From contig JAFXZM010000004.1 of assembly GCA_017541275.1 (NCBI GenBank), positions 16,832 to 80,831 of the forward strand: a stretch of 64,000 nt of DNA, written 5' to 3'. Under the pieces are notes generated by a model. That model was not told where the DNA came from, ran no database searches, and worked only from the letters and a program-made list of their open reading frames with translations. Position 1 is the first letter of the stretch. Every line of letters starts with the position of its first letter. The position numbers were made by a program, and so were the translations under genes. This document shows positions 43,344 through 56,884 of this stretch, in pieces. Source of the DNA: Oscillospiraceae bacterium. GTDB lineage: Bacteria; Bacillota; Clostridia; Oscillospirales; Ruminococcaceae.

Positions 43344-43372
43344 TTGCAAATTATAGGGAATTGTGGTATAAT
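43344..43372 (+). promoter_or_regulatory. strong sigma-70-type promoter with extended -10, upstream of the helicase operon
   Basis: TTGCAA-17 nt-TATAAT, with TGG immediately 5' of the -10 (TGnTATAAT). Lies in an AT-rich 400-bp spacer. Confidence 0.6.
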
Positions 43373-43437: not shown

Positions 43438-46431
43438 GTGAAAAGCGCCATGGTGTTTTCCACCATTGTATCTGACAGTCAGAATCGTTACAGGATTGAA
43501 CGTGATTTTCATGCGGAAGCATTCTCCGATTCAGATCAGGAATCGGTATCCGAACTGTGCGGGCGTATCTGGAGAAGCACACCGCTGCTTGGTGAGTTCA
43601 TCCTGAGCAGCAGGGAACAGGACAGGGTCCTGTCGTCTGCCGCAGTCATACTGAAACAGATGATATGCATGCCGGCTGCACATCAGAGCCCTGCCAATGA
43701 GCGTATTCTGGCAATGGCAATGGTTTTGCTGACACAGGCACAGGACAACGACGAAAACGACAGCAAATTATGGGATTATCTGCTGACACAGCTTGGCTAT
43801 GATGATGCCGCTGCGAAAAAATGCTCAAAGCAGACCCTTCGGAATAAAGTGACTGAAATTCTCGACCATGTTTTTCAATATGAGGGAAAGTTTTATTCGG
43901 AGGACGGCCACCGATATTTCAATACGCTGCGGCTCCATGCGCTCGCACCGACACAGAGTGTTGAGCATCTGTACAACCTGCTGTATGATTTTTATAAAAC
44001 GAATTTGGAGTGCCAGTATACGGAAGGCGACAACAGCTACCGGATTTTTGTGCGGCAGATCTGCAAGCGCTGGCAAAACAAATCCGCGGACGATCAAACA
44101 GAATCGGATATGAAAACCCGTTCCGATTATCTGGCGGCCAGCTTTCGGGAGCTGTTTACGCAGCGGCCGGAATATACCGCAGCGCTTTGTGATGCGCTTG
44201 TTTACCGGATGGATGTGATGCTCCGCGGAAGCACAGATATCTTTGCAGAGGAAAACCGCTGGGATCAGCTCATGCTCGGCTGGTACCGCAGAAAAGCGGA
44301 GACAGAGCGGCAGCGCATGAAGCAATCCTCCGCACAGGCCAGAATCTCGCGCATTGTGACCGATTCCGCCAAAATCGCCCCGGCCTATCATTATAAGGAC
44401 GAGCAGCTATCACTGTTTCTGCCGCGCATACGTCTGCCGGAAATCACAGAGCGTCCGACGGCAGTTCTGCTGCAGGGCGGGCGTGTGATTGACAGCATGC
44501 AGCTATCGGTGTTCGGCAATGACCTTTGCCTCACGACCCGCGAAATACAGATTATTCTTTCCGGCCGGGCGCACATCGACTGGGACAGCCCGATGGACTT
44601 CCGGATTCTGCTTCAGTGCGGCGGCAGGCTGCTCTATGATTCCGGGCAGCAGCTATACCGTTCTTATCTTTTGTTCCGGGTCGACGGTGAAGAAACCAGA
44701 CGCATTCCGCAGGTTTCCGCAGCCATGTATCTGGTGTACGGCTGGAATTCCGAAATGATGTATGATGAAACGGAGGACGTCAATTATACATACGGCTCCG
44801 ATTTTCAGGTGTTTGAATTTATCCCGTCATCACTGCGGCTGCTTTCCGTAAACGGAAAGAATCTGCTGCAGAAAAAGGGACAGGGAATGCAGTGCATGAT
44901 ATACGGCGACAGAGTTCCGGATGCCAGTGTGACCGGCTTCGGAGAAACCGCACTGCTTTTCAGAAGCAGCCCGTATTTGTATGTTTCTGCGGATTCCGCG
45001 GAGCAGATGAAGCAGTATGTATGCGACATCAACGGCACAGCGCTGCCGCTGTATCAGGCGGCAAACGCAAAGACCGATGCAAGGATTCCGCTGCCGGCGG
45101 CACAGAATCAGATTGGCAGGGTCGCTGTCCGCAGCTTTTATGACGGCAGAATCATTTTCGAGCAGTTATATTCTGTTCTTCCGGATTTCACACACCGGTT
45201 TGAACCGGCGTATTATTATTCCGGACAGCTTTTCGGAAAAGTGCATATTTCAGCCATGAACCGGCAGAATACGATCTCGTTTGAGCTGAGCCGCGATCAG
45301 CATTCGGTTACGGTTCCGCTGACACCCGATATCGGGCTGACGCTTTCTGCACCGTGGATTCAGGCAGAGCTGAACGGAGAGGATGCCTTTTCCTTGCCAG
45401 CATATATCTGGAAGGATTTTTTTCAGCAGCATCCGTTTTTGCAGATTACAGCACCGAAATGGCTGGAGATTCACCTGATGCTGGGCGGTACGGAGCTGCC
45501 CCGTCAGCAGAACGGCTACGACATCCGGAGCGCCGTCCGTGCCCTATGCAGCAATGCCGCAGGCACACCGAAGACCTGTCCGCTGGGAATCCTGCTCAAA
45601 AAAAGCGGCGCTGCGAAGCCGGATCAGATTCTGTTGTCCAACCTTGCCCTGCACCCGTTTTTAACTGAATCGCCGGTCATTTGCCGCGACAGAACAATCT
45701 ACTGGGAGCCAAGCGGAAAGTATATCGGCCCCGCCTGTGATACCATCCGGGTGCTTCTGGAAAATGATGAAGGAACAGAACCGTGGGTTTATGTATGCGA
45801 TCCGAAAAAGTCGTTCATCATTGAAAAGGCTTTTCCCTGCAAAGAGGGCAGCTACCGCTATGAAATCAGAGCCGAACAGGCAAATGCATTACAGGCGCAA
45901 GCCGAGCAGACATTGCTTCAGGGGGAAATCATCATCCGCGATCCGGAGGAGCTGCGCTATGAAGGCGCCGTGATTTACCTGACAGCCGCGAAATTTGAAA
46001 CAAATAGCTGGCTTTCGAGCTGGGAGGCAAAGATTCCATTTGGCTGTGCGAGACTGGTCGATATTCAGTATGAAACGATCTCGGTTCCGCTGGAAGGCAA
46101 ACTGAAGGATTATCAGGATCCGGTTCCCTGCTTCAGCGCATTTTTGCAATTCCGCATCGCAAGGGTGCAAAAATGGAACGATTTTAATTCCGACCCGGAT
46201 AACACGGAATATACGCTGATTAACCCTGTTCTGTTCTGGCAGGTCACATCGGAAAGCGGTTTGGATTATCTGATTTTGCAGGGCAGGGACGGCCGGCGAA
46301 TCATGATGGAGGAATTCCGAAGCGGCTGCGTCAGCGTTGTGAACCGCAGCAGCGCACAGATACCCGGCCGCCGGCGAAAACGGGCAGACCGTTTTGAATT
46401 TCAGGTCGAGGCGGATGCAGATGTTGAATAA
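43438..46431 (+). CDS. large uncharacterised protein, first gene of the candidate defence operon (DruH-like by size and context)
   Basis: 997-aa ORF (alternative ATG at 43450). I found no P-loop, nuclease, methylase or TM motif. The stop is 11 nt before the helicase gene. Confidence 0.6.
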   Translation: MKSAMVFSTIVSDSQNRYRIERDFHAEAFSDSDQESVSELCGRIWRSTPLLGEFILSSREQDRVLSSAAVILKQMICMPAAHQSPANERILAMAMVLLTQAQDNDENDSKLWDYLLTQLGYDDAAAKKCSKQTLRNKVTEILDHVFQYEGKFYSEDGHRYFNTLRLHALAPTQSVEHLYNLLYDFYKTNLECQYTEGDNSYRIFVRQICKRWQNKSADDQTESDMKTRSDYLAASFRELFTQRPEYTAALCDALVYRMDVMLRGSTDIFAEENRWDQLMLGWYRRKAETERQRMKQSSAQARISRIVTDSAKIAPAYHYKDEQLSLFLPRIRLPEITERPTAVLLQGGRVIDSMQLSVFGNDLCLTTREIQIILSGRAHIDWDSPMDFRILLQCGGRLLYDSGQQLYRSYLLFRVDGEETRRIPQVSAAMYLVYGWNSEMMYDETEDVNYTYGSDFQVFEFIPSSLRLLSVNGKNLLQKKGQGMQCMIYGDRVPDASVTGFGETALLFRSSPYLYVSADSAEQMKQYVCDINGTALPLYQAANAKTDARIPLPAAQNQIGRVAVRSFYDGRIIFEQLYSVLPDFTHRFEPAYYYSGQLFGKVHISAMNRQNTISFELSRDQHSVTVPLTPDIGLTLSAPWIQAELNGEDAFSLPAYIWKDFFQQHPFLQITAPKWLEIHLMLGGTELPRQQNGYDIRSAVRALCSNAAGTPKTCPLGILLKKSGAAKPDQILLSNLALHPFLTESPVICRDRTIYWEPSGKYIGPACDTIRVLLENDEGTEPWVYVCDPKKSFIIEKAFPCKEGSYRYEIRAEQANALQAQAEQTLLQGEIIIRDPEELRYEGAVIYLTAAKFETNSWLSSWEAKIPFGCARLVDIQYETISVPLEGKLKDYQDPVPCFSAFLQFRIARVQKWNDFNSDPDNTEYTLINPVLFWQVTSESGLDYLILQGRDGRRIMMEEFRSGCVSVVNRSSAQIPGRRRKRADRFEFQVEADADVE

Positions 46432-46442
46432 AGGAGGAATGT

Positions 46443-49400
46443 ATGGAACGGTTTGATCCCATTCAGGCATCAGAACAAATCAAGGAATGCTTTATAGATT
46501 ATATCACGACCTCCTTCCGTATGGCAGACGATACCTATGCAGAACTGCTGCGGGAGGAGCTGCGCAGGGAGGGCAGCATTGCCCGCGGCCCGTATCTGGA
46601 TGTCTCCGGCTCCTATAAAACCGGGGCGAGCCTGACGGAATTGATGAAAAGCGGAGAGGTCAGCCCGCTGTTTCAGGCACTTGAGCCGATCCCGGAGCAT
46701 GACCGGGAGCTGAAACTGCTGCGGCCGCTGTATCTGCATCAGGAGGCAGCATTAAAAAAGGCAAATGCGGGAAAGAATCTGGTCGTAACAACCGGAACCG
46801 GCTCCGGAAAAACAGAATGCTTTTTGATTCCGGTGCTGAATGCGCTGCTCCGGGAACGGGAACAGGGGCCGCTGACCGATGCGGTCCGGGCGATTATCAT
46901 TTATCCGATGAACGCGCTTGCCAATGACCAGATGAAACGGATGCGGAAGCTGCTGCAAAAGTATCCGGAAATCACATTCGGCATTTATAACGGAAATACC
47001 CGCCATACGGAGGCAGATGCCAGACGCGATTACAAAACGGCCAACGGAAAGGATGCCGAGCCGTACACCAACGAGCTGATCTCCCGCGAACGGATGCAGA
47101 AAACACCGCCGCATATTCTGATTACGAATTACTCGATGCTCGAATACATGATGCTCCGCCCGAAGGATGACAACGTGTTTTCCGGTGCAAAGCTGCGGTA
47201 TATTATTCTGGACGAGGCACATATTTACAAGGGGACGACCGGAATTGAAACCGCCATGCTGATGCGGCGTCTGCGTGCCCGGATCAGTACGCGGGATACG
47301 GTGCAGTTCATTCTGACCAGTGCAACCCTCGGCGGCCGGGACGCTGACATGGAGATCGTCCGCTTTGCAAAGACACTGTGTGAGGTTGATTTTGCGCCTT
47401 CTGACATTGTCCGTTCGGAGAGTGCATTGCCGCCGATGACCGGCATGGAGACTTACCCGCCGGAGCTGTTTGTGCAAATCGCGCACAGGGAGAAACCGGT
47501 CGCAGAGGTGCTGGCTGATTTTTCTGTTCCGGATTATGCACCGGACGGAGATGATGCCGAAAAATGCTATGCGCTTCTACTGCATTCCGCACAGTTTCAT
47601 GCGCTGATTCTGAATACGGCCGAGCCGGTCAGCATGAACAGGCTGTGTGCCGATATGCACGGAATGACGCCCTCACAGCTCAGGGATTTTATTTCCGTAT
47701 GCACATATGCGGAAAAAGATCATGTCAGTCTGATTAAGGCGCGGTATCATTTCTTTGTCCGCGCACTGGAGGGCGCGTATGTCACGCTGAATCATCCGCA
47801 AAAGCTGTTTTTGCAGCGCAGATCACTGCTCACAAATCCGGACGGCTCACAGCAGACCGCATTTGAAATCGCCGTCTGCCGCGACTGCGGACGCATGGCG
47901 CTGGTCGGCCGTGAGAGCGACGGCTTTCTGCATCAGGTTTCCAGAAAAAGCGAACGCGATCCGAATGCCTGCGAATATTATCTGATCGCAGATGATTCGT
48001 TTCAAACGATTGATGACGGCGCATCCGATCTCAGTGAAGATGAGGAAGCAGCCGGTGAAGATTTTTCCGTCTGTGCATGCTGCGGAAAGCTCGGCACAAA
48101 GGCGGATATCCGGTTCGGTGCATTCTGCGGCTGTGAAAAGCCGGAGTATGTCACGCTGAAAAGAGTCCTGAGAACGGAAAGCGGAGCTGCCAAATGTCCT
48201 GCCTGCGGGTTCGGTGCATTGAGAGCGTTTTATCTCGGCAGCGATGCGGCCACGGCTGTTCTGGGCACAGAGCTGTTTGAACAGCTCCCTGATACAGAGC
48301 TGCTTCCGCAGGAGAAAAAAGCCAAAGCGCCGGAGGGCGCGGGATTCGGCCTGTTCAAGCCCAAGGCGCTGCTCCCGAAAAAAATTACGAAGCCGCTGAC
48401 AAGACAGTTTTTGTGCTTTTCCGACAGCCGCAGCGAGGCAGCCTATTTTGCAAACTATATGGAGAAATCCTATCAGGAATTTCTGCGCCGCCGTGCGATT
48501 TTGCAGGTAGCAGATGCGCTGCGGGCGCAGGGACAGAGCGAGATCTCCGTGACCGCGTTTGTCAGCCGGCTGATACGGTTCTTTGATGAAAAGAAAACCT
48601 TTGAAATCTGGAGGCCGGACGGACATCAGGATTCGGATGCACTGCATATAGAAAGTGAACGGAATGCGTGGATCGCAGTCCTGAATGAAATGTTTAATGC
48701 AAGGCGCGGAACCAGTCTGACGGCACTGGGAAGACTGTCCTTTGAGTATCAGCCGAATCAGGAGTATATCTCAGGCGTTGCCGAAAAATACGGTCTTACG
48801 GAGCAGGAAAGCAAGGACCTTCTGAATCAGATTGCGATGTACGCTGTTTATACAGGCGCCGTCAATGCAGGCAGGCAGCTTGCGCTGAATGCAGCAGAGC
48901 GGGAATACATTTTCTTCTCTGAATATGAGAAAAAGCTCGTGCTTCAGAAAATGTCCGGCATGCCGAGCACCATCACCGGCTGGGCCGGGCGAAAGCGCAG
49001 CTCCGGCACCTATTATCCGAATTCCCGGATGCAGCGGCTCAGCAATACGCTGGGCATGACACCGGAGGAAGCGGATACCTTTCTGGAGCAGTACTGGAAC
49101 GGCGTCTTTCAGCCGGAGGGCGCGGAGTACATTTTATCCGCAGAGGATTTTCACATCCGTTTTCTCGGCAATCCGGAATTTCACTTTTTCCGGTGCAGAA
49201 AATGCGGGGGCGTTACGCCGTATAATGCCAGAAACCGCTGTGCCTCTGTTCGCTGCGACGGCACGCTCGAACCGATTGATCCGGATGCATATTTCCGAAA
49301 CAATCACTATCTGCGGCTGTATCAGAATCCGCAGATGAGCTCGCTTCAGATCAAGGAGCATACGGCGCAGCTTTCCAAGAATCACCAGACACGGTATCAG

Positions 49401-51641
49401 CAGGCATTTGTGGATAAGGATATCAATGCGCTGAGCTGCTCAACAACATTTGAAATGGGCGTGGACGTCGGCAGCCTCGAAACCGTGTATATGCGCAATA
49501 TTCCGCCAAGCCCGGCCAATTATGTGCAGAGAGCAGGACGCGCGGGCCGTTCCAGACAGTCTGCGGCGTATGTTCTGACCTATGCAAAGCTCTCGTCGCA
49601 TGATATGACCTTCTACGGGGCGCCGGAAACGATCATATCCGGCAGCATTCAGGCTCCGGTCTTTTCGATTCAGAATGAAAAGGTGGTCAACCGCCATATT
49701 TTCGCAGTCGCACTCAGCAAATTCTTTGCGTTGCATGAGGAAATCTATGACAGCGACAATCAGTCGGCGCTGCTGAATCATGGCGGATATGAGGTGCTGA
49801 AGGAATACCTTGCGGCAAAGCCGGAGGATCTCCGGCAGCTTTTGATGCTTTCGGTTCCGGAGGAGCTGCACAGTCTGCTCGGCATACCGGATTTTGGCTG
49901 GACGGAAAAGCTGGTCGGAAAAGACGGTGTTCTGGAGATTGCCGTGCAGGAATTCCGCGAGCAGATTGCAGTGCTGGAAAATGAGATCAAGCGGTGCGAT
50001 AAGCTGAAGGACAGAGAGGGCGCCGCAGCCGCAGAACGGTATCTGAAGGCGTTTCGCTGTGCAGAGGAAGACGGACGCCATAAAAAGCGGCTGATTGATT
50101 TTCTGGTGCGCAATAATGTGCTTCCCAAATACGGCTTCCCTGTTGATACCGTAGAATTGCAGCCCGCAAATGCATTCCGGCTGGAAAGCCGCGACACCCT
50201 GCAGCTTGCCCGCGATTTACAGCTTGCAATCGCAGAATATGCGCCCGGAGCCGAGGTAATTGCCGACGGAAAGATGTACACAAGCCGGTATATCCGGAAA
50301 ATGCCGGGAAAGGACAACTCGGCCGCATGGGAAAAAGGGTATTACTGTGAGTGTCCGTCGTGTCAGGAACCGAATTTCTCAAAGCGGTACGATACCAAGC
50401 TGAGCGGGGCAAAGTGCATCTCCTGTCTCAAGCTGATCGCACCGAAATCATGGAAGCCGACACTGGAACCGCGGCGCGGATTCTGGACAGACGGCAGCGA
50501 AAAGGATGTTCCGCTGCGAAAGCCGGAACGGGAGTATAAAACCGCGGATTATTATATCGGTGATATGGAGCGGCGGCGCCTGATGCGGACACGCTTCCTC
50601 GTAAATGATCTGGAAATTGAAATGGAATCCACCGCGAATGATTCGCTTGCCGTGGTCGGCCTGACGGATTACTATGTCTGCGAAAGCTGCGGATATGCTT
50701 CCGATACAGATTTTTCATCCGATCATAAGACGATGCGCGGATTCAAGTGCTCCAGCAAAAAGGAAACCCACAACCGCTACCGGTTATCCCATACCTTTAA
50801 GACCTTTGTGGCGAAAATTAAATTCTGCATTCCGGCCGCACAGGACGAGCAGACGATGCTTTCCGTCATGTACGCACTGCTGGAAGGGCTTTCCAGAGAG
50901 CTGTCCATCGAGCGAACCGATCTGAAGGGCTGTCTGCACAGAGAACCGCTTGAGGGCTGTCAGCGTCCTGTGTTTGCGGTCATTCTGTACGATGCAGTTG
51001 CAGGCGGCGCGGGTCATGTCCGCCGCATGGTCACAGAGGATGCCGCAGTATTCCGGCGGGTTCTGAAGCGTGCAATCGCCGTAGCGGAAGGATGCAGCTG
51101 CGATCCGTCCTGCTATCAATGCCTGCGGAATTACTACAATTCGCAGATACACGATCTGCTTGACCGGCGGCTTGCAGCGGATTTTCTGAAGCAGTGGGTC
51201 GGAGAATACGTACCGAAAGCAGCCGCGTCTGTGCAGACGGCAGATGCAGATGAAATACAGGCTGCATCGGGAGCGGAAGCCGTTTCGCCCTGCAAAATCC
51301 GGTTTAAGAATAACGGCCGGAATTTGCGCAATGTCCCGGCTCAGCAGGTCTGGGATACCGTACTGGGCGACTGCGCCGAAGAAGACATCGGCATCGTGCA
51401 GCAGCTCCGCGAAATGCATCACGGAGCCGGCGGGAACCCGTATTATCAGGCGTATTTCGTTTTCCCGGAAGTATCAGACCGGAAATGCAATGCCGCACTG
51501 ATCTGGGAGAAGCAAAAGGTAATTTTCTTTGTGAGTGACCAGTTCGAGGATTATGAATATGCGCTGAAAAGCGGCTGGCACTGCTTCTGCACCGCAGATA
51601 ATCCCGATCTGCATCAGATGATTCAAATAATAGGAGGATAA
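46443..51641 (+). CDS. DEAH-box SF2 helicase with multiple zinc ribbons and a DUF1998-type C-terminal domain (DruE-like)
   Basis: AAGGAGG RBS. Motif I TGTGSGKT (aa 117-124), Ia YPMNALANDQ, II DEAH (aa 257-260), III TSAT, VI QRAGRAGR. CxxC clusters at aa ~477-586 and later. DUF1998-like EGCSCDPSCYQCLRNYYN. Confidence 0.75.
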   Translation: MERFDPIQASEQIKECFIDYITTSFRMADDTYAELLREELRREGSIARGPYLDVSGSYKTGASLTELMKSGEVSPLFQALEPIPEHDRELKLLRPLYLHQEAALKKANAGKNLVVTTGTGSGKTECFLIPVLNALLREREQGPLTDAVRAIIIYPMNALANDQMKRMRKLLQKYPEITFGIYNGNTRHTEADARRDYKTANGKDAEPYTNELISRERMQKTPPHILITNYSMLEYMMLRPKDDNVFSGAKLRYIILDEAHIYKGTTGIETAMLMRRLRARISTRDTVQFILTSATLGGRDADMEIVRFAKTLCEVDFAPSDIVRSESALPPMTGMETYPPELFVQIAHREKPVAEVLADFSVPDYAPDGDDAEKCYALLLHSAQFHALILNTAEPVSMNRLCADMHGMTPSQLRDFISVCTYAEKDHVSLIKARYHFFVRALEGAYVTLNHPQKLFLQRRSLLTNPDGSQQTAFEIAVCRDCGRMALVGRESDGFLHQVSRKSERDPNACEYYLIADDSFQTIDDGASDLSEDEEAAGEDFSVCACCGKLGTKADIRFGAFCGCEKPEYVTLKRVLRTESGAAKCPACGFGALRAFYLGSDAATAVLGTELFEQLPDTELLPQEKKAKAPEGAGFGLFKPKALLPKKITKPLTRQFLCFSDSRSEAAYFANYMEKSYQEFLRRRAILQVADALRAQGQSEISVTAFVSRLIRFFDEKKTFEIWRPDGHQDSDALHIESERNAWIAVLNEMFNARRGTSLTALGRLSFEYQPNQEYISGVAEKYGLTEQESKDLLNQIAMYAVYTGAVNAGRQLALNAAEREYIFFSEYEKKLVLQKMSGMPSTITGWAGRKRSSGTYYPNSRMQRLSNTLGMTPEEADTFLEQYWNGVFQPEGAEYILSAEDFHIRFLGNPEFHFFRCRKCGGVTPYNARNRCASVRCDGTLEPIDPDAYFRNNHYLRLYQNPQMSSLQIKEHTAQLSKNHQTRYQQAFVDKDINALSCSTTFEMGVDVGSLETVYMRNIPPSPANYVQRAGRAGRSRQSAAYVLTYAKLSSHDMTFYGAPETIISGSIQAPVFSIQNEKVVNRHIFAVALSKFFALHEEIYDSDNQSALLNHGGYEVLKEYLAAKPEDLRQLLMLSVPEELHSLLGIPDFGWTEKLVGKDGVLEIAVQEFREQIAVLENEIKRCDKLKDREGAAAAERYLKAFRCAEEDGRHKKRLIDFLVRNNVLPKYGFPVDTVELQPANAFRLESRDTLQLARDLQLAIAEYAPGAEVIADGKMYTSRYIRKMPGKDNSAAWEKGYYCECPSCQEPNFSKRYDTKLSGAKCISCLKLIAPKSWKPTLEPRRGFWTDGSEKDVPLRKPEREYKTADYYIGDMERRRLMRTRFLVNDLEIEMESTANDSLAVVGLTDYYVCESCGYASDTDFSSDHKTMRGFKCSSKKETHNRYRLSHTFKTFVAKIKFCIPAAQDEQTMLSVMYALLEGLSRELSIERTDLKGCLHREPLEGCQRPVFAVILYDAVAGGAGHVRRMVTEDAAVFRRVLKRAIAVAEGCSCDPSCYQCLRNYYNSQIHDLLDRRLAADFLKQWVGEYVPKAAASVQTADADEIQAASGAEAVSPCKIRFKNNGRNLRNVPAQQVWDTVLGDCAEEDIGIVQQLREMHHGAGGNPYYQAYFVFPEVSDRKCNAALIWEKQKVIFFVSDQFEDYEYALKSGWHCFCTADNPDLHQMIQIIGG

Positions 51642-51645
51642 AAAT

Positions 51646-53379
51646 ATGGCAGTGATGTGTCCGGAAACTCCGCGGGAGTTTCACCCTGCAAGTCTGGAGG
51701 GAATGATGTTTCAGGCGCTTTCTGCGCTGCCGGACAGCTATTATGTATTTCATTCGTTCACAGTTATTCATACAGATGATGAAGGTCTCTCCGAGTGTGA
51801 GGTCGATTTCGTGATCTTTCATCCGGAAAAGGGCGTGCTGTGTATTGAGGCAAAGGCCGGCAATGTGCAGTATCAGAACGGAGAGTGGCTTTACGGAGAC
51901 GGAACCCCGATGCGGCACGGAGGGCCGTTCCGGCAGGCCAGCACCAACATGCATAATCTCATGGATTATATTGACGATTGCGGCTATGATTACATCCGGA
52001 AAAAATGCAAGTTCATGTTTGCCGTCTGGTTCCCCTCCGTGACGGAGGAGCAGTTCCGGAATGTCGTGCTGCCTGCGGATGCAGACCGCAGTCTGATTCT
52101 GTTCCGTGATTCCATCGAACAGATCAGCGACGAGATTGCGCGGATCTTTTCGATTCCGCTCCGGCAGCATAACGTACAGACAATGCTCGGCGCACGCGAT
52201 AAAACGCTGTTGCTGGAACGCATCTTTGCACCGCGGTTCGAGATCATTTCGATCACGACCATGGAACACACGCATAAAAAGCTGGTGTTCAAAACACTTC
52301 TGAAGGAACAGACTGCATTGCTCAACTATCTGGAGGAGCAGAACTGTGCCGTGATTAACGGTATGGCAGGAACCGGAAAAACACTGATTGCACTGGAAAA
52401 AGCAAGGCGGCATGCTGCAAAAGGTGAATCTGTGCTGTTCCTTTGCTATAACAAAAAGCTGAAGGAGCATCTTCGCACCTGCTATCCCCACGACTTCATC
52501 GAATACCATACGATCGACGGACTGGCCTGCAAGCTGTGCAATACGCCGTCTGCGGATTATCAGCTCTTTCAGGAAAAACTGGAGGACTACTATCTCGACG
52601 GCGGCTTCCCGTATCAGCATGTGATAATAGATGAAGGACAGGATTTCGGTCAGGAAAAGCTGGATGAGATTACGATTGTGGAATTGCTGCAAAGCATCAT
52701 CACGGAGCATGAGGAAGCAAACGGCACATTTTATGTGTTTTATGACAAAAACCAGCTTGTACAGGGCTCCCGGATTCCCGCCTGCATCGCAAATGCGGAG
52801 TGCCGTCTGACCCTCTACAGAAATTGCCGGAATACGGAAAATATCGCGATTGCTTCTATGCGGCTGCTCGGCTCAGAACGTCAGCCAAAGCTGTTCGCGG
52901 ATGCTGTGATCGGAGATACGCCCCTGTTGTTTATGGAGGAAGCGGCAAAGAAACAGGCAGCAGCGGTTCAGCAGTGTATCCGGCAGTTCGAGCAGTCCGG
53001 CTGCGAAAGCATTGTAATTCTGACGGTAAAAACCGAGGAAACCGGTTTGCTGCATGCGGACGCCGCACAGGGCATGTATTTATATCAGGGCAGGAAATAT
53101 CTGTATACAACCTGCCGGAAATTCAAAGGACTGGAAGCTGACGCAGTCATCCTGACCGATATTGAAGGAAATATGGACGCGGATGAGATCCGGAAGCTGA
53201 TTTATGTCGGTGCATCCAGAGCGAGGTTCCATCTGGCTCTGATTACCGGCCTGCGCGAAGCAGATTGCTGCGGTTTGCTTGACCGCATGGAGCTGAAGCA
53301 TACGAGACAGCCGAAAAAAGCGCTGGCGACAGCATTCAATGCAAAGCTCGCAGCGATTCAGGATGCTGTAACAGTGTGA
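51646..53379 (+). CDS. NERD-domain nuclease fused to an SF1 (UvrD-like) helicase
   Basis: AGGAGG RBS, 4 nt after the upstream stop. NERD core ECEVDFVIFHPEKGVLCIEAK. Walker A GMAGTGKT. IIDEGQDF. C-terminal KGLEADAVIL and YVGASRAR. Confidence 0.75.
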   Translation: MAVMCPETPREFHPASLEGMMFQALSALPDSYYVFHSFTVIHTDDEGLSECEVDFVIFHPEKGVLCIEAKAGNVQYQNGEWLYGDGTPMRHGGPFRQASTNMHNLMDYIDDCGYDYIRKKCKFMFAVWFPSVTEEQFRNVVLPADADRSLILFRDSIEQISDEIARIFSIPLRQHNVQTMLGARDKTLLLERIFAPRFEIISITTMEHTHKKLVFKTLLKEQTALLNYLEEQNCAVINGMAGTGKTLIALEKARRHAAKGESVLFLCYNKKLKEHLRTCYPHDFIEYHTIDGLACKLCNTPSADYQLFQEKLEDYYLDGGFPYQHVIIDEGQDFGQEKLDEITIVELLQSIITEHEEANGTFYVFYDKNQLVQGSRIPACIANAECRLTLYRNCRNTENIAIASMRLLGSERQPKLFADAVIGDTPLLFMEEAAKKQAAAVQQCIRQFEQSGCESIVILTVKTEETGLLHADAAQGMYLYQGRKYLYTTCRKFKGLEADAVILTDIEGNMDADEIRKLIYVGASRARFHLALITGLREADCCGLLDRMELKHTRQPKKALATAFNAKLAAIQDAVTV

Positions 53380-53407: not shown

Positions 53408-53438
53408 TGCGGGCCGGAGATATCATCTCCGGCCCGCA
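53408..53438. terminator. perfect 13-bp hairpin between convergent operons
   Basis: TGCGGGCCGGAGA-TATCA-TCTCCGGCCCGCA. The T run (AAATGTTTTTTGC) is on the minus-strand side. Confidence 0.7.
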
Positions 53439-53524: not shown

Positions 53525-56500
53525 CTAAGGCTTCTCCAGCAGCTTCAGAATCCGGCTCACATCCAGAACAGTCAGCATATCGTCCTGATCCATGTCAGCG
53601 GCTTTCAGGCCGGTATCGGAAATCGCAGCATCCTCGTCCTCCGCAATGTATTTGCAAAGCAGCTCGGCGTCCTCGGCAGAGACCGCTCCGTCCTGATTGA
53701 CGTCGCCGTACAAAATGCTGTCACCGGCTTTCTCAAAGATAAACCAATCCACATTCATGACATATTCCCCGTCGCCCTTGAACAGCAGACAGAGATCGTG
53801 TACGCCTTCTGTCGGTGTAATCTCGGTTTCAAACTGCTGATAATTCATCCAGTCGCCGGTCGGCGGACAGGTGATGCTGCCGATCAGCGTTCCATCATAC
53901 GGATCGTCCAGACGCAGCTCGACCGTGCCCTCATCCATGCCGGACGCCGCCATCCGGAATTTCGCCGCACCGCCGCCGAAATCGACGTTAAAATAGATTG
54001 CAAAATCGTACTGATTGATGTACCCGAGACAGGTAATCTCATCGGACTGCTGCACGGGCTCCATAATGTCCATCAGATCGGCGCTTTCCGCCTGAATGGT
54101 TTTGAATGCATTGCGGTTCTTCAGCGGATCAGGCACGGTTGTGGTCGTTTCGGTTGTTGTCTCAGTCGTGACGCTTGTTGTGATTTTCGGAATTTCGGAA
54201 ATCGCGACAAACGGGATACCGTTTTTCTTGGCATATTCCTGCGCATAGGAGCCTGCAATGCCCTTGATCGTCAGCTTTGCGTCATTTTCAAACGCATTAT
54301 CGGAAATGTAAGTGACGCTCTCAGGGATAATGACCTCACGCAGGTATTCACAGTTTGCGAATGCCCGATTGCTGATGTATTCCACGCCCTCTTCCAGCGT
54401 GACATAACAAAGACTGGTGCATTGATTGAAAGCCTGAACCGCAATAGCTTTTACGCTGCCCGGAATCGTGACTGCGGGAAATCCGCATCCCTGAAACGCG
54501 CAATCGTCAATGAATGTCAAGCTGTCCGGAAAATGCGGCTCATTGATACGGGAGCGCTCAAACGCATCTTTCCCGATATATGTTAAAGTATTCGGCATGA
54601 CTACATTATAGGGTCCCCAGTTTTGCGAATCATATGAGAACGCAGCATTGCCGATTTCCGTGACCCCCTCCGGAATCACAACTGTACCCTCGCAGCGTCT
54701 TCCGTCAATCACCACATTGTTTTCAATCACGAGCAGGATTTCGGGATTCTGCGCCTTATCCCACGCTGTTCCGGCGAATGCATTTTCTCCGATTTCCGTC
54801 AAACTGTCCGGGAGATTGATAACCGCAAGTTTTTCACATCCGTAAAACGCCTCCGCACCGATGCTGATTACACTGTCCGGAATGGTAATCTCGGTTATGC
54901 TTAAGTCACCGGAAAATGCATTATCGCCGATGATTTTTACGCCGTCCGGAATGGTGATTTCAGGCGTCCATTCCAGTCCGTTCGCCGCAGATCCGGCGAT
55001 ATTGACAACACCGTCCGGAATGACAAGCGGTTCCGTGGAGAATCTGCCGTTCGGTGTCTCGAATAAAACATGATTTTCAATCACATACGGATTTTCCGAA
55101 CTTTTTGCATCCTCCCATGGTGTTATTCCAAATGGACCGCTGCCGAATTTTGTCATGCTGTTCTCGATCGTGACAGAAGTGAGACTTGGGCACTGGCCAA
55201 ATGCAAAATCGCCGACGAACTCTACGGTTTTCGGAATCGTGATCGCGGTCAGCGCTCTGCAATAGGAAAATGCACCGGCGCCGATGATTTTCACATTTTT
55301 CGGAATGGTCACGCCTTCCAGCTTCAGGCATTCTGAAAAGGCATGGTCGCCGATTTCCGTCAGGCTGTCCGGAAGCGGAGCAGAGGTCAGACCGTTGCAT
55401 TTATAAAACGCCTCCTCGCCGATATACTCCACGCCCTCCTCAATGGCGGCGGTTTTCATGGCGTAGCATCCGCTGAACGCCTTTTTCCCGATGCTTTTCA
55501 CGGTGCCGGGAATTGTGAGCTTTTCCATGTGACAATCGCTGAACAGACCCTCCGGAATGCTTGTCATGCTTTTCGGAATCGTCACGCCGTCCCAGAGCAT
55601 ACAGTCTGCAAACGCATATTCGCCGATTTCAACCGCGCTTTCCGGGATTGTAACTCGGTTCAGGTTTTGGCAGTGATTGAATGCATTTGCGCCAATCTTC
55701 GTTACACTGTCCGGAATTGAAACGCTGTTCAGCTTTGTGCACCACAGGAATGCATTTTTACCGATCTCTGTCACGCCGTCCGGAATGGTAACGGAGGTCA
55801 GCTTGTCCTGCCGTGCAAACGCATTGATGCCGATTACGGTCACGCCGTCCGGAATGACAACATCGCCTTCACATTTGCCGGCGTCGATCAGAACATGGTT
55901 CACAATCACCATGCCCCCGTCCGTCTGCTGTGCAGCAAGCCACGGCGTTTCCCTGAACGCATCCTTATCAATGCCGGCTGCACTCCCCAGAATCGTGACA
56001 TCGGTCAGGTTCTCGCAGTACACAAAAGCTCTCTCGCTGATACTTGTCACGCTTTTCGGAATTGTAACGGAAGTGAGGCTTGTACAGCGTTGAAATGCCT
56101 CCCAGCCGATGCTTGTCACGCTCTCCGGAATTGTCACGGAGGTGAGGCTGCTGCAGGATGCAAACATACATTGTCCAATGCTTGTCACACTGTTCGGAAT
56201 CGTTACAGAAGCAAGATTATCGCAGTCACTAAATGCATAATCACCGATGTTTGTCACATTGTCCGGAATCGTCACGGACGCAAGGCTTTTGCATTGTCTG
56301 AACGCATACTCCCCGAAACTTGTCACACTGCTTGGAATTGTAACAGAGGCAAGGTTTTCACATCCAAAGAACGTGTAGTCTGCGATGCTTGTCACGCCCT
56401 CCGGAATTTTGATTTCGGTCAGGCTTTTGCAACCGAAAAAAGCCGCCGCCCCAATGCTCGTTACACTGTCCGGAATATTGATTTCGGCCAGATTTGTACA

Positions 56501-56884
56501 GTTGTAAAACGCATACGCGCCGATGCTTGTCACGGTATCCGGGAGCGTGACGGAGATAATATTGCTTTGGATTTCTCCGCCGTCGTTCTTGAAGAGATTA
56601 TCGGCAATGGAGGTTACACCCTCCGAAACAACGACCCTTTTGATGTTTTCATTCCACGAAAACGGGCTGGAATAATGAATATCAAAATTTCTCATCGGTC
56701 CTGTGCCGGTGATTGTCAGCGTGCCCTCATCGTCCAGCGTCCAGCGGTGATCCGGCCCCAGAAGCCCCTGCTCCGCCGCATTGGCGGTCAGCACGGCCTC
56801 CGGCAGCAGTTCCGGCGCCAGCGGCACGCTCACGAGGCACATGCCCGCGGCCGTCAGCAGGGAGAGCAGCTTTTTCAGTTTCAT
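53525..56884 (-). CDS. secreted BspA-type leucine-rich-repeat protein with CBM6-like module and C-terminal dockerin
   Basis: AGGAGG RBS. Signal peptide. More than 25 repeats of (V/I)TIPxSVTSIGxxAFxxCxxL. CBM6-like block (TIQAES...TGDWMNYQ...NVDWFIF). Dockerin loops GDVNQDGAVSAED and DMDQDDMLTVLD. Confidence 0.85.
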   Translation of the reverse strand: MKLKKLLSLLTAAGMCLVSVPLAPELLPEAVLTANAAEQGLLGPDHRWTLDDEGTLTITGTGPMRNFDIHYSSPFSWNENIKRVVVSEGVTSIADNLFKNDGGEIQSNIISVTLPDTVTSIGAYAFYNCTNLAEINIPDSVTSIGAAAFFGCKSLTEIKIPEGVTSIADYTFFGCENLASVTIPSSVTSFGEYAFRQCKSLASVTIPDNVTNIGDYAFSDCDNLASVTIPNSVTSIGQCMFASCSSLTSVTIPESVTSIGWEAFQRCTSLTSVTIPKSVTSISERAFVYCENLTDVTILGSAAGIDKDAFRETPWLAAQQTDGGMVIVNHVLIDAGKCEGDVVIPDGVTVIGINAFARQDKLTSVTIPDGVTEIGKNAFLWCTKLNSVSIPDSVTKIGANAFNHCQNLNRVTIPESAVEIGEYAFADCMLWDGVTIPKSMTSIPEGLFSDCHMEKLTIPGTVKSIGKKAFSGCYAMKTAAIEEGVEYIGEEAFYKCNGLTSAPLPDSLTEIGDHAFSECLKLEGVTIPKNVKIIGAGAFSYCRALTAITIPKTVEFVGDFAFGQCPSLTSVTIENSMTKFGSGPFGITPWEDAKSSENPYVIENHVLFETPNGRFSTEPLVIPDGVVNIAGSAANGLEWTPEITIPDGVKIIGDNAFSGDLSITEITIPDSVISIGAEAFYGCEKLAVINLPDSLTEIGENAFAGTAWDKAQNPEILLVIENNVVIDGRRCEGTVVIPEGVTEIGNAAFSYDSQNWGPYNVVMPNTLTYIGKDAFERSRINEPHFPDSLTFIDDCAFQGCGFPAVTIPGSVKAIAVQAFNQCTSLCYVTLEEGVEYISNRAFANCEYLREVIIPESVTYISDNAFENDAKLTIKGIAGSYAQEYAKKNGIPFVAISEIPKITTSVTTETTTETTTTVPDPLKNRNAFKTIQAESADLMDIMEPVQQSDEITCLGYINQYDFAIYFNVDFGGGAAKFRMAASGMDEGTVELRLDDPYDGTLIGSITCPPTGDWMNYQQFETEITPTEGVHDLCLLFKGDGEYVMNVDWFIFEKAGDSILYGDVNQDGAVSAEDAELLCKYIAEDEDAAISDTGLKAADMDQDDMLTVLDVSRILKLLEKP

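Follow-up and report, generated by a model that had tools for sequence, protein, structure and literature searches.

A NERD-type nuclease–helicase gene that follows YprA-family defence helicases with a C-terminal tail

Where might a Druantia-type defence system find the nuclease with which to destroy phage DNA? According to one preprint, Druantia III 'lacks an apparent nuclease module' and may recruit other nucleases (10.64898/2026.05.12.722862), and several 2026 preprints on Druantia III leave the step at which phage DNA is destroyed open. This question is raised directly by a three-gene operon from an Oscillospiraceae bacterium, which lies in a stretch of 64,000 nucleotides (contig JAFXZM010000004.1, positions 16,832 to 80,831 of the forward strand), referred to here as the window. 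The last gene of the operon, gene 3, is predicted to encode a nuclease fused to a helicase; gene 2, immediately upstream, encodes a DruE-like helicase of the YprA family, and gene 1 a large protein in the position of DruH. An initial annotation, made from the sequence of the window, had read gene 3 as a fusion of a NERD nuclease and a superfamily 1 (SF1) helicase coupled to a DUF1998 helicase, had likened it to the stand-alone anti-phage protein Nhi, and had called the composition of the operon unusual. Our analysis makes gene 3 a concrete candidate for the cutting step, and a testable answer to the source of the nuclease in Druantia-type immunity. From sequence comparison we judge it probable, with some reserve, that gene 3 is a dependent, plug-in effector arm of defence by YprA-family helicases, which would be docked through a C-terminal tail of DruE.

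Helicase partners of gene 3 and the tail they carry

We scanned genomes with gene 3 as the seed, taking one genome per species and the best 80 of 349 relatives with up to 10 kb of sequence on each side, and typed the neighbouring helicases by BLAST against references that had been typed with PADLOC and Pfam. A YprA-family helicase gene lies directly upstream on the same strand in 75 of the 80 loci, or in 75 of the 76 in which upstream sequence exists, so the adjacency to a DUF1998 helicase reported in the initial annotation is no peculiarity of the window, and the condition which that annotation had named as refuting its reading, homologues never standing next to DUF1998 helicases elsewhere, is decidedly contradicted. 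The two genes are separated by -13 to +13 nt in 74 of these 75 loci, the gap in the other one (L032) being 187 nt. The partners comprise 46 DruE proteins of the III-like type, 26 DrmB proteins, one DruE1, one DruE4 and one C3a193/DpdF-like helicase. Four of the remaining five loci lie at contig ends, two of them still with the tail described below, and the fifth (L041) carries a solo homologue. That gene 3 also follows DrmB of DISARM and other types of DruE, and that the upstream helicase bears a matching C-terminal tail, had both been missed in the initial annotation.

Wherever the contig is long enough, the DruE III-like partners are preceded by a protein of 890-1076 residues, and in the loci with enough upstream sequence the DrmB partners are preceded by DrmA. 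Two of the DISARM-linked loci, L026 and L060, were examined in full, and both have the order DrmMII-DrmE-DrmA-DrmB-gene 3. The open reading frames (ORFs) 3' of gene 3 in these two loci have no PADLOC or Pfam match, so no DrmC is recognised in either. L026 (47-11707) and L060 (1381-11701) are DISARM class 2 operons, the former with a C5 methyltransferase, in which a NERD-SF1 gene occupies the place of DrmC. Because they end in the same tail, their DrmB proteins, at ~785 residues, exceed the PADLOC DrmB profile by roughly 150 residues. Gene 3 follows DruD and DruE1 in L028, and DruL4 and DruE4 in L063. In L056 (5340-11626, from Aminicella lysinilytica) a 1218-residue C3a193/DpdF-like superfamily 2 (SF2) helicase without an MZB match carries the tail and is followed by the NERD-SF1 gene; a 294-residue protein with a faint HNH signal is encoded 5' of this helicase. 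L056 suggests that the cassette of tail and gene 3 is not limited to partners that bear DUF1998. In a tree built from 100 homologues of gene 3, those linked to DISARM form one clade (support 95) nested among the Druantia-linked ones, the gene 3-positive DruE loci are spread over at least six separate clades, and the tree requires seven changes of partner, compared with an expectation of 29.7 when the labels are shuffled.

For the view from the helicase side we scanned metagenomes with a DruE alignment as the seed and obtained 80 loci, 50 of them informative in that they continue for at least 1800 nt past the DruE stop codon. Gene 3 is present in 21 of these 50, and in all 21 DruE extends 131-160 residues past the MZB module; 28 of the 29 informative loci without gene 3 have an extension of 7-52 residues, and a short tail is never seen together with gene 3 (two-by-two counts 21/1/0/28). 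Fisher's test gives p = 3e-13 for the co-occurrence of tail and gene 3, a value that overstates the case because related loci are not independent. The closest relatives of the window's DruE, at 55-56% identity, lack both gene 3 and the tail, yet are preceded by homologues of gene 1. The dependency is one-sided: gene 1 and DruE occur without gene 3, but gene 3 is scarcely ever found in the absence of a YprA-family helicase.

The tail is homologous at the ends of the DruE III-like, DrmB, DruE1, DruE4 and DpdF-like partners, with the consensus G..y..IW..l..d..e...l..l...ekP.y...dL.W...kv.lFl..n..Y..Ak..w.cfc. A hidden Markov model (HMM) of the tail matches every gene 3 locus having upstream sequence (for the solo locus see below) and has no match at the tail position in DruE proteins without gene 3, where it gives weak hits off position in L107 (E 6e-4) and L126 (E 0.007). 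Against 1.84 billion representative proteins it matched 252, many of them fragments, and in all 150 listed of the 252 matches the tail stands at the extreme C-terminus. The full-length proteins that bear it are DrmB proteins of 750-834 residues, DpdF-like proteins of ~1225 residues and DruE types of 1706-2065 residues. An AlphaFold2 (AF2) model of the tail, with a predicted local distance difference test score (pLDDT) of 87 and a predicted template modelling score (pTM) of 0.76, has an alpha-beta-beta-beta-alpha-beta order behind a low-confidence linker. The tail belongs to no Pfam family and has no significant fold match in the PDB. We considered the tail as a nuclease and do not regard it as catalytic, because W99 is the only invariant residue of the 143-residue segment; a commonly conserved Asp is Ala in the window.

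Across 56 Druantia III-like loci, in pair statistics that ignore the relatedness of the loci, pairs with similar gene 3 proteins also have similar tails (Spearman 0.85 between the identities), whereas gene 3 identity hardly correlates with that of the DruE core (0.16); between tail and core the correlation is likewise weak (0.20). The loci whose cores are closest to the window's (54-56%) are the most distant from it in tail (13-17%) and in gene 3 (32-39%); conversely, those closest in gene 3 (48-50%) and tail (28-33%) are the most distant in core (32-37%). Since its identity tracks gene 3 and not the core, the tail would appear to travel or co-evolve with gene 3 and not with its own helicase.

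Domains of gene 3 and features of the locus

Gene 3 begins 4 nt past the stop codon of the upstream gene, as the initial annotation had read directly from the sequence, and the motifs it quoted are all present: ECEVDFVIF...GVLCIEAK (residues 51-70), GMAGTGKT (239-246), IIDEGQDF (327-334), KGLEADAVIL (494-503) and YVGASRAR (520-527). Among 24 relatives at 48-89% identity the invariant residues are E52, D54, E68, K70 and Q97 in the nuclease part and G242-T246, D329-F334, R395, T488/R491/K492/K494-E497 and Y520/V521/G522/S524/R525/A526 in the helicase part, and such invariance places the motifs far beyond chance. The SF1 motifs can be assigned as Walker A (G242-T246), Walker B or motif II (D329-E330-G-Q332), R395, motif V (T488..K494-G-L-E497, in TTCRKFKGLE) and motif VI (Y520-V-G-x-S-R525-A). 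The coordinates of these domains and of the other features of the locus are collected in Table 1.

The sole above-threshold Pfam match of gene 3 is UvrD_C_2 (PF13538; 39.6 bits against a cutoff of 27.4), with weak matches to SLFN-g3_helicase, AAA_30 and ResIII. The PADLOC profile RTasNERD-Hel matches residues 1-400 with E 2e-55 and C3a187 'NERD+UvrD' with E 2e-14; the AbiO and Nhi profiles reach 1e-6 to 1e-7 over the P-loop region only. Pfam NERD matches 8 of the 24 aligned homologues (best E 1.8e-9). The description of gene 3 as a fusion of a NERD-type nuclease and an SF1 helicase is borne out by family homology and PADLOC, not by a Pfam match of gene 3 itself: we use the NERD label because homologues in the family match Pfam NERD, because NERD-named PADLOC profiles match, and because the D...ExK strands are found in the predicted fold.

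The AF2 model of gene 3 (pLDDT 78) contains a compact, two-lobe helicase and a poorly predicted linker at residues 197-216. Its nuclease core is predicted as strands 33-44, 47-59 and 63-69 followed by helix 94-111 (pLDDT 83-93), with D54 on strand 47-59 and E68 and K70 on strand 63-69, as in the alpha-beta-beta-beta-alpha core of PD-(D/E)xK nucleases. In a Foldseek search of the PDB, for which the query was the whole gene 3 protein and not the nuclease domain alone, the best neighbours were SLFN11/14, RecD2, RecD, Dda and Upf1-like proteins (E 2e-14 to 1e-7), with UvrD 21st. This ranking of the modelled fold would make the motor core SF1 and perhaps SF1B-like. Sequence profiles match HelD/UvrD C-terminal regions too, while the best folds are SF1B-type or Upf1-like, and a search of solved structures with the family-profile HMM matched only two small HelD-like C-terminal fragments.

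Past the helicase core, the C-terminus of gene 3 (residues 548-577, positions 53287-53379) has a short predicted helix with the consensus KALATAxNAK, in which K558 and N565 are invariant, and this conserved helix is a candidate contact for the DruE tail. The extreme N-terminus (M-A-x-M-x-P-x-x-P) is unusually conserved. Among 5.8 billion proteins searched there are more than 3247 relatives of gene 3 of ~570 residues, mainly from gut and rumen Bacillota; within the class the family is sporadic, with a weaker relative in 2 of 299 other genomes.

Table 1. Features of the gene 3 operon, with positions counted from the first nucleotide of the window
Feature	Position	Strand	Basis
Promoter-like site, best of region, 5' of gene 1: TTGCAA-17-TATAAT with TG	43344..43372	+	Consensus scan only
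Gene 1: 997-residue protein, DruH position	43438..46431	+	Position and size
Gene 2: compact DruE-like YprA-family helicase, 1732 residues; DEAD, Helicase_C, MZB/DUF1998	46443..51641	+	Pfam, PADLOC
Ala/Glu-rich linker from MZB module to tail, DruE residues 1590-1617	51210..51293	+	pLDDT 53-58; unalignable between loci
DruE C-terminal tail domain (proposed docking domain), residues 1618-1732, ~115 residues	51294..51638	+	Homology, co-occurrence, AF2
Shine-Dalgarno sequence AGGAGGA of gene 3, within DruE end, 7 nt before ATG	51632..51638	+	Direct reading
Gene 3 (P0001): 577-residue NERD-type nuclease and compact SF1 helicase	51646..53379	+	ORF/translation, Pfam, PADLOC
N-terminal PD-(D/E)xK (NERD-type) domain, residues 1-195	51646..52230	+	Invariant residues, AF2 model, Pfam NERD on homologues
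Predicted catalytic D54, E68 and K70, plus Q97	51805-51807 (D54), 51847-51849 (E68), 51853-51855 (K70)	+	Alignment invariance
SF1 helicase core, residues ~220-535	52303..53250	+	Invariant columns, Pfam, Foldseek
Stem-loop, 13-bp G+C-rich stem, between gene 3 and convergent leucine-rich repeat gene	53409..53438	.	Scan (14 pairs from 53408)

At the junction, the DruE stop codon TAA (51639-51641) is followed by the spacer AAAT and the ATG of gene 3 at 51646, and the Shine-Dalgarno sequence overlaps the last two Gly codons and the stop codon of the upstream gene (...GGA GGA TAA). The tight coupling to a DUF1998/MZB helicase seen in the initial annotation stands, and that helicase proves to be DruE (PADLOC DruE1 E 3e-177, DruE3 E 1e-164). 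No PLD or other recognised nuclease domain was found with Pfam or PADLOC in gene 2, and none in gene 1. Gene 1 has no Pfam, PADLOC or NCBIfam match, and hence no match to a DruH profile. Homologues of gene 1 (20-30% identity over most of the length; tblastn of the upstream regions of L082-L161) lie 5' of DruE both with and without gene 3, so we take gene 1 to be part of the core pair and independent of the cassette. Pfam and PADLOC gave no reverse transcriptase (RT) domain in genes 1, 2 or the neighbours examined and no RelE, methyltransferase or BrxH match in the operon.

The G+C content of the operon is 0.53, slightly lower than that of the flanks (0.56-0.58). The stem-loop downstream of gene 3 has a run of T solely on its minus-strand side. 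An antisense ORF of 468 codons (51304-52710, minus strand) overlaps the end of DruE and the first half of gene 3; it is not conserved, and is most likely a chance frame because its counterparts in 70 related loci reach a median of only 113 codons. Near-identical pieces of the DruE end and of gene 3, each with 0-2 differences (98.7-100% identity), occur as contigs of 151-265 nt in bovine metatranscriptomes, which suggests a rumen organism. The convergent neighbour (53525-56884, minus strand) encodes a protein of 1119 residues with BspA-type leucine-rich repeats, CBM6 and a type I dockerin, which points to a host among the cellulosome- or amylosome-bearing Clostridia of the rumen or gut.

A docked effector arm and the rival explanations

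The simplest reading of the sequence comparisons is that the tail and gene 3 form one mobile cassette of docking domain and effector, which would have spread among helicases of the Druantia III-like, I and IV types, the DrmB of DISARM and a DpdF-like helicase. Gene 3 would be translated in step with DruE, and the DruE tail, on its flexible linker of ~30 residues, would dock the gene 3 protein onto the helicase. In E. coli Druantia III-A, DruE binds exposed single-stranded DNA and unwinds in the 3'-5' direction (10.64898/2026.05.13.724758). If the E. coli preprints are a guide to this operon, DruE would engage and unwind the invading DNA, and the tethered nuclease-helicase would then cut and digest the unwound DNA. 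Gene 3 would in this way take the role of the DISARM PLD nuclease DrmC, a function apparently missing from canonical Druantia III, and would supply the sole recognisable nuclease of the compact Druantia III-like systems. The nuclease activity of gene 3, DNA as its target and its role in defence are all predictions. If they are true, the tethered NERD-SF1 enzyme would give the nuclease-less Druantia III a cutting step of its own.

Several observations weigh against this reading. Docking is suggested by co-occurrence and co-divergence only, and the latter, measured on pairs of loci irrespective of relatedness, could reflect the co-transfer of adjacent DNA and not contact. One DruE-seeded locus, L107 (3101-10728), has a 140-residue DruE extension without gene 3 and encodes proteins of 142 and 590 residues downstream; neither is related to gene 3 (for the larger one, an hhalign probability of 0.1), and the locus may hold a different pair of tail and partner. 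The homologue in L041 (10001-11761), the sole solo case among the 80, is intact at 586 codons and has neither a same-strand gene nor a tail-like sequence in the 800 nt upstream. The modelled tail could have a function of its own, since its best PDB neighbours, all of them weak (E 0.6 or worse), include PvuRts1I, Can2, RecE and AbaSI, and these hits and its order of helices and strands suggest an endonuclease-like fold. Residues 1-215 of gene 3 do not match Pfam NERD (PF08378) even at E = 10. As to co-transcription, the bovine metatranscriptome contigs cover parts of the DruE end and of gene 3 but none spans the 51641/51646 junction, and carry-over of DNA may be their source.

It is also possible that gene 3 is a motor or regulator and not a killing nuclease. 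At DNA ends or forks its SF1 part might help to load or reset DruE, or else work against it, with the NERD domain mainly recognising DNA ends, or the protein might be a sensor of infection that licenses DruE. The helicase half of gene 3 is as conserved as the nuclease half, and its best structural matches are SF1B-type motors (RecD2, RecD, Dda) with a polarity opposite to the 3'-5' direction of E. coli DruE (10.64898/2026.05.13.724758), which would permit a machine with two motors. E. coli DruE can, moreover, do without its PLD domains (10.64898/2026.05.13.724758), so Druantia may not need a nuclease. We nevertheless consider such a role rather unlikely, given that D54, E68, K70 and Q97 do not vary in the family, as one would expect of a functional active site, and that gene 3 sits exactly in the canonical DrmC place in the two DISARM loci checked. 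That gene 3 is the toxin arm of an abortive infection system, released or activated by the helicase to degrade host and phage nucleic acid (possibly RNA) without distinction and stop the cell, seems to us distinctly improbable. Direct action that leaves the cell alive has been reported for E. coli Druantia III-A and for ARMADA, and NERD domains have the PD-(D/E)xK DNA-nuclease fold; in favour of a toxin stand the Schlafen group-3 helicase among the top structural and Pfam matches, the company that related NERD-helicases keep with UG34 reverse transcriptases (PMC9226505) and the RNase-type RelE domain on the equivalent protein of ARMADA II (PMC12458937).

We give very little credence to gene 3 as an independent, single-gene defence of the Nhi kind that merely shares a defence island with the Druantia pair. 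A partner stands directly upstream in all but one of the loci with upstream sequence, nearly always at the close spacing given above, and the tail of that partner co-occurs and co-diverges with gene 3. The architecture is indeed that of Nhi, with a nuclease and an SF1 helicase in one chain (10.1101/776245), and one homologue, in L041, is solo. The likeness to stand-alone Nhi drawn in the initial annotation nevertheless falls away, as the PADLOC Nhi profile (PDLC02372) matches residues 226-373, the P-loop region, only (E 1e-6) and the family is practically never alone. A weak promoter-like site upstream of gene 3 (51575-51602, 9/12 in a consensus scan) would also favour independence, but it is at chance level, the 14 promoter-like sites of the region being not clearly above the 8.7 +/- 3.0 of shuffles.

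The locus belongs to a recurrent natural variant, spread over at least five kinds of YprA-family helicase, in which a dedicated nuclease-helicase would be attached through a tail and defence modules would be exchanged at a junction inside a gene and not between genes. The tail and gene 3 are a small, separable domain pair whose binding is directly testable. Current annotation splits the system, PADLOC profiles naming DruE or DrmA/DrmB and gene 3 receiving an RT-associated (DRT) name. In a wider and more doubtful version, the tail/NERD-SF1 pair would be portable and could be joined to any immune helicase of the YprA family (Druantia I, III-like, IV-type, DISARM, DpdF-like), giving a RecBCD-like machine in which two motors of opposite polarity, an SF2 one running 3'-5' and an SF1B-like one, feed one PD-(D/E)xK nuclease as the missing DNA-destroying step of Druantia; as a whole we think this version unlikely.

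Comparison with known systems

We found no description of the variant with tail and gene 3 in the searchable literature, subscription journals being outside the search. A survey of the YprA family mentions NERD only for the rare TALON systems (PMC12458937); neither NERD nor UvrD appears in its supplementary files as far as these were searched, and the 2026 Druantia papers searched do not mention NERD. The window's operon resembles the compact 'III-B / III-like' form of Druantia III (PMC12458937; 10.64898/2026.05.13.724758) in its DruE-type YprA helicase without PLD and in the ~1000-residue protein without known domains that precedes DruE. Druantia III-A and III-B as published consist of two genes, whereas here there is a third, coupled nuclease-helicase gene and a tail on DruE, and this three-gene arrangement, which departs from the two-gene composition, recurs in 46 of the 80 loci.

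In DISARM, nucleases are encoded just 3' of the DUF1998 protein (PMC12458937). Class 2 (DrmMII, DrmE, DrmA, DrmB, DrmC) shares with the gene 3 loci a nuclease gene directly after the DUF1998/MZB protein, and 26 of the 80 homologues themselves follow DrmB. DrmC, however, belongs to the PLD nucleases and has no helicase part, whereas PD-(D/E)xK and SF1 helicase domains are combined in gene 3; the DrmB proteins linked to gene 3 bear the extra tail, and the window's own system is Druantia-like and not DISARM. ARMADA II (PMC12458937) offers ArmD, an SF1 helicase with an N-terminal domain of nucleic-acid-cleaving type, encoded after the YprA helicase ArmC. The N-terminal domain of ArmD is RelE-like and its helicase is of the GajB-like UvrD kind, whereas gene 3 has a NERD domain and matches GajB profiles only at E 3e-5 or worse; ARMADA also comes with BrxHII-like and PglX-like genes, which are absent from this operon. 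ARMADA II already has two or three helicases and a nuclease-type domain (PMC12458937), and the trio of the window recurs in many genomes, so the composition of the operon is less unusual than the initial annotation had supposed.

Among single proteins, Nhi (SERP2475) of Staphylococcus epidermidis likewise joins an N-terminal PD-(D/E)xK domain to an SF1 helicase, and its defence needs both nuclease and helicase activities (10.1101/776245), but Nhi works alone whereas members of the gene 3 family come, with few exceptions, together with a coupled YprA helicase. The best profile for gene 3 is that of the NERD-helicase associated with UG34 RTs (cluster 485, Mestre et al. 2022, PMC9226505; PADLOC PDLC03813), which has the same order of NERD then helicase; gene 3 covers only positions 1-365 of the 519 in this profile, and the operon is without an RT. 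RecBCD and AddAB, finally, also bring together a PD-(D/E)xK nuclease and motors whose polarities may be opposite, and RecD and RecD2 are among the structural matches of gene 3. Unlike in those enzymes, the partner motor here is an SF2 YprA helicase, and gene 3 has no sequence-level membership of their families. By analogy, gene 3 would resemble DrmC, ArmD and Nhi in general logic.

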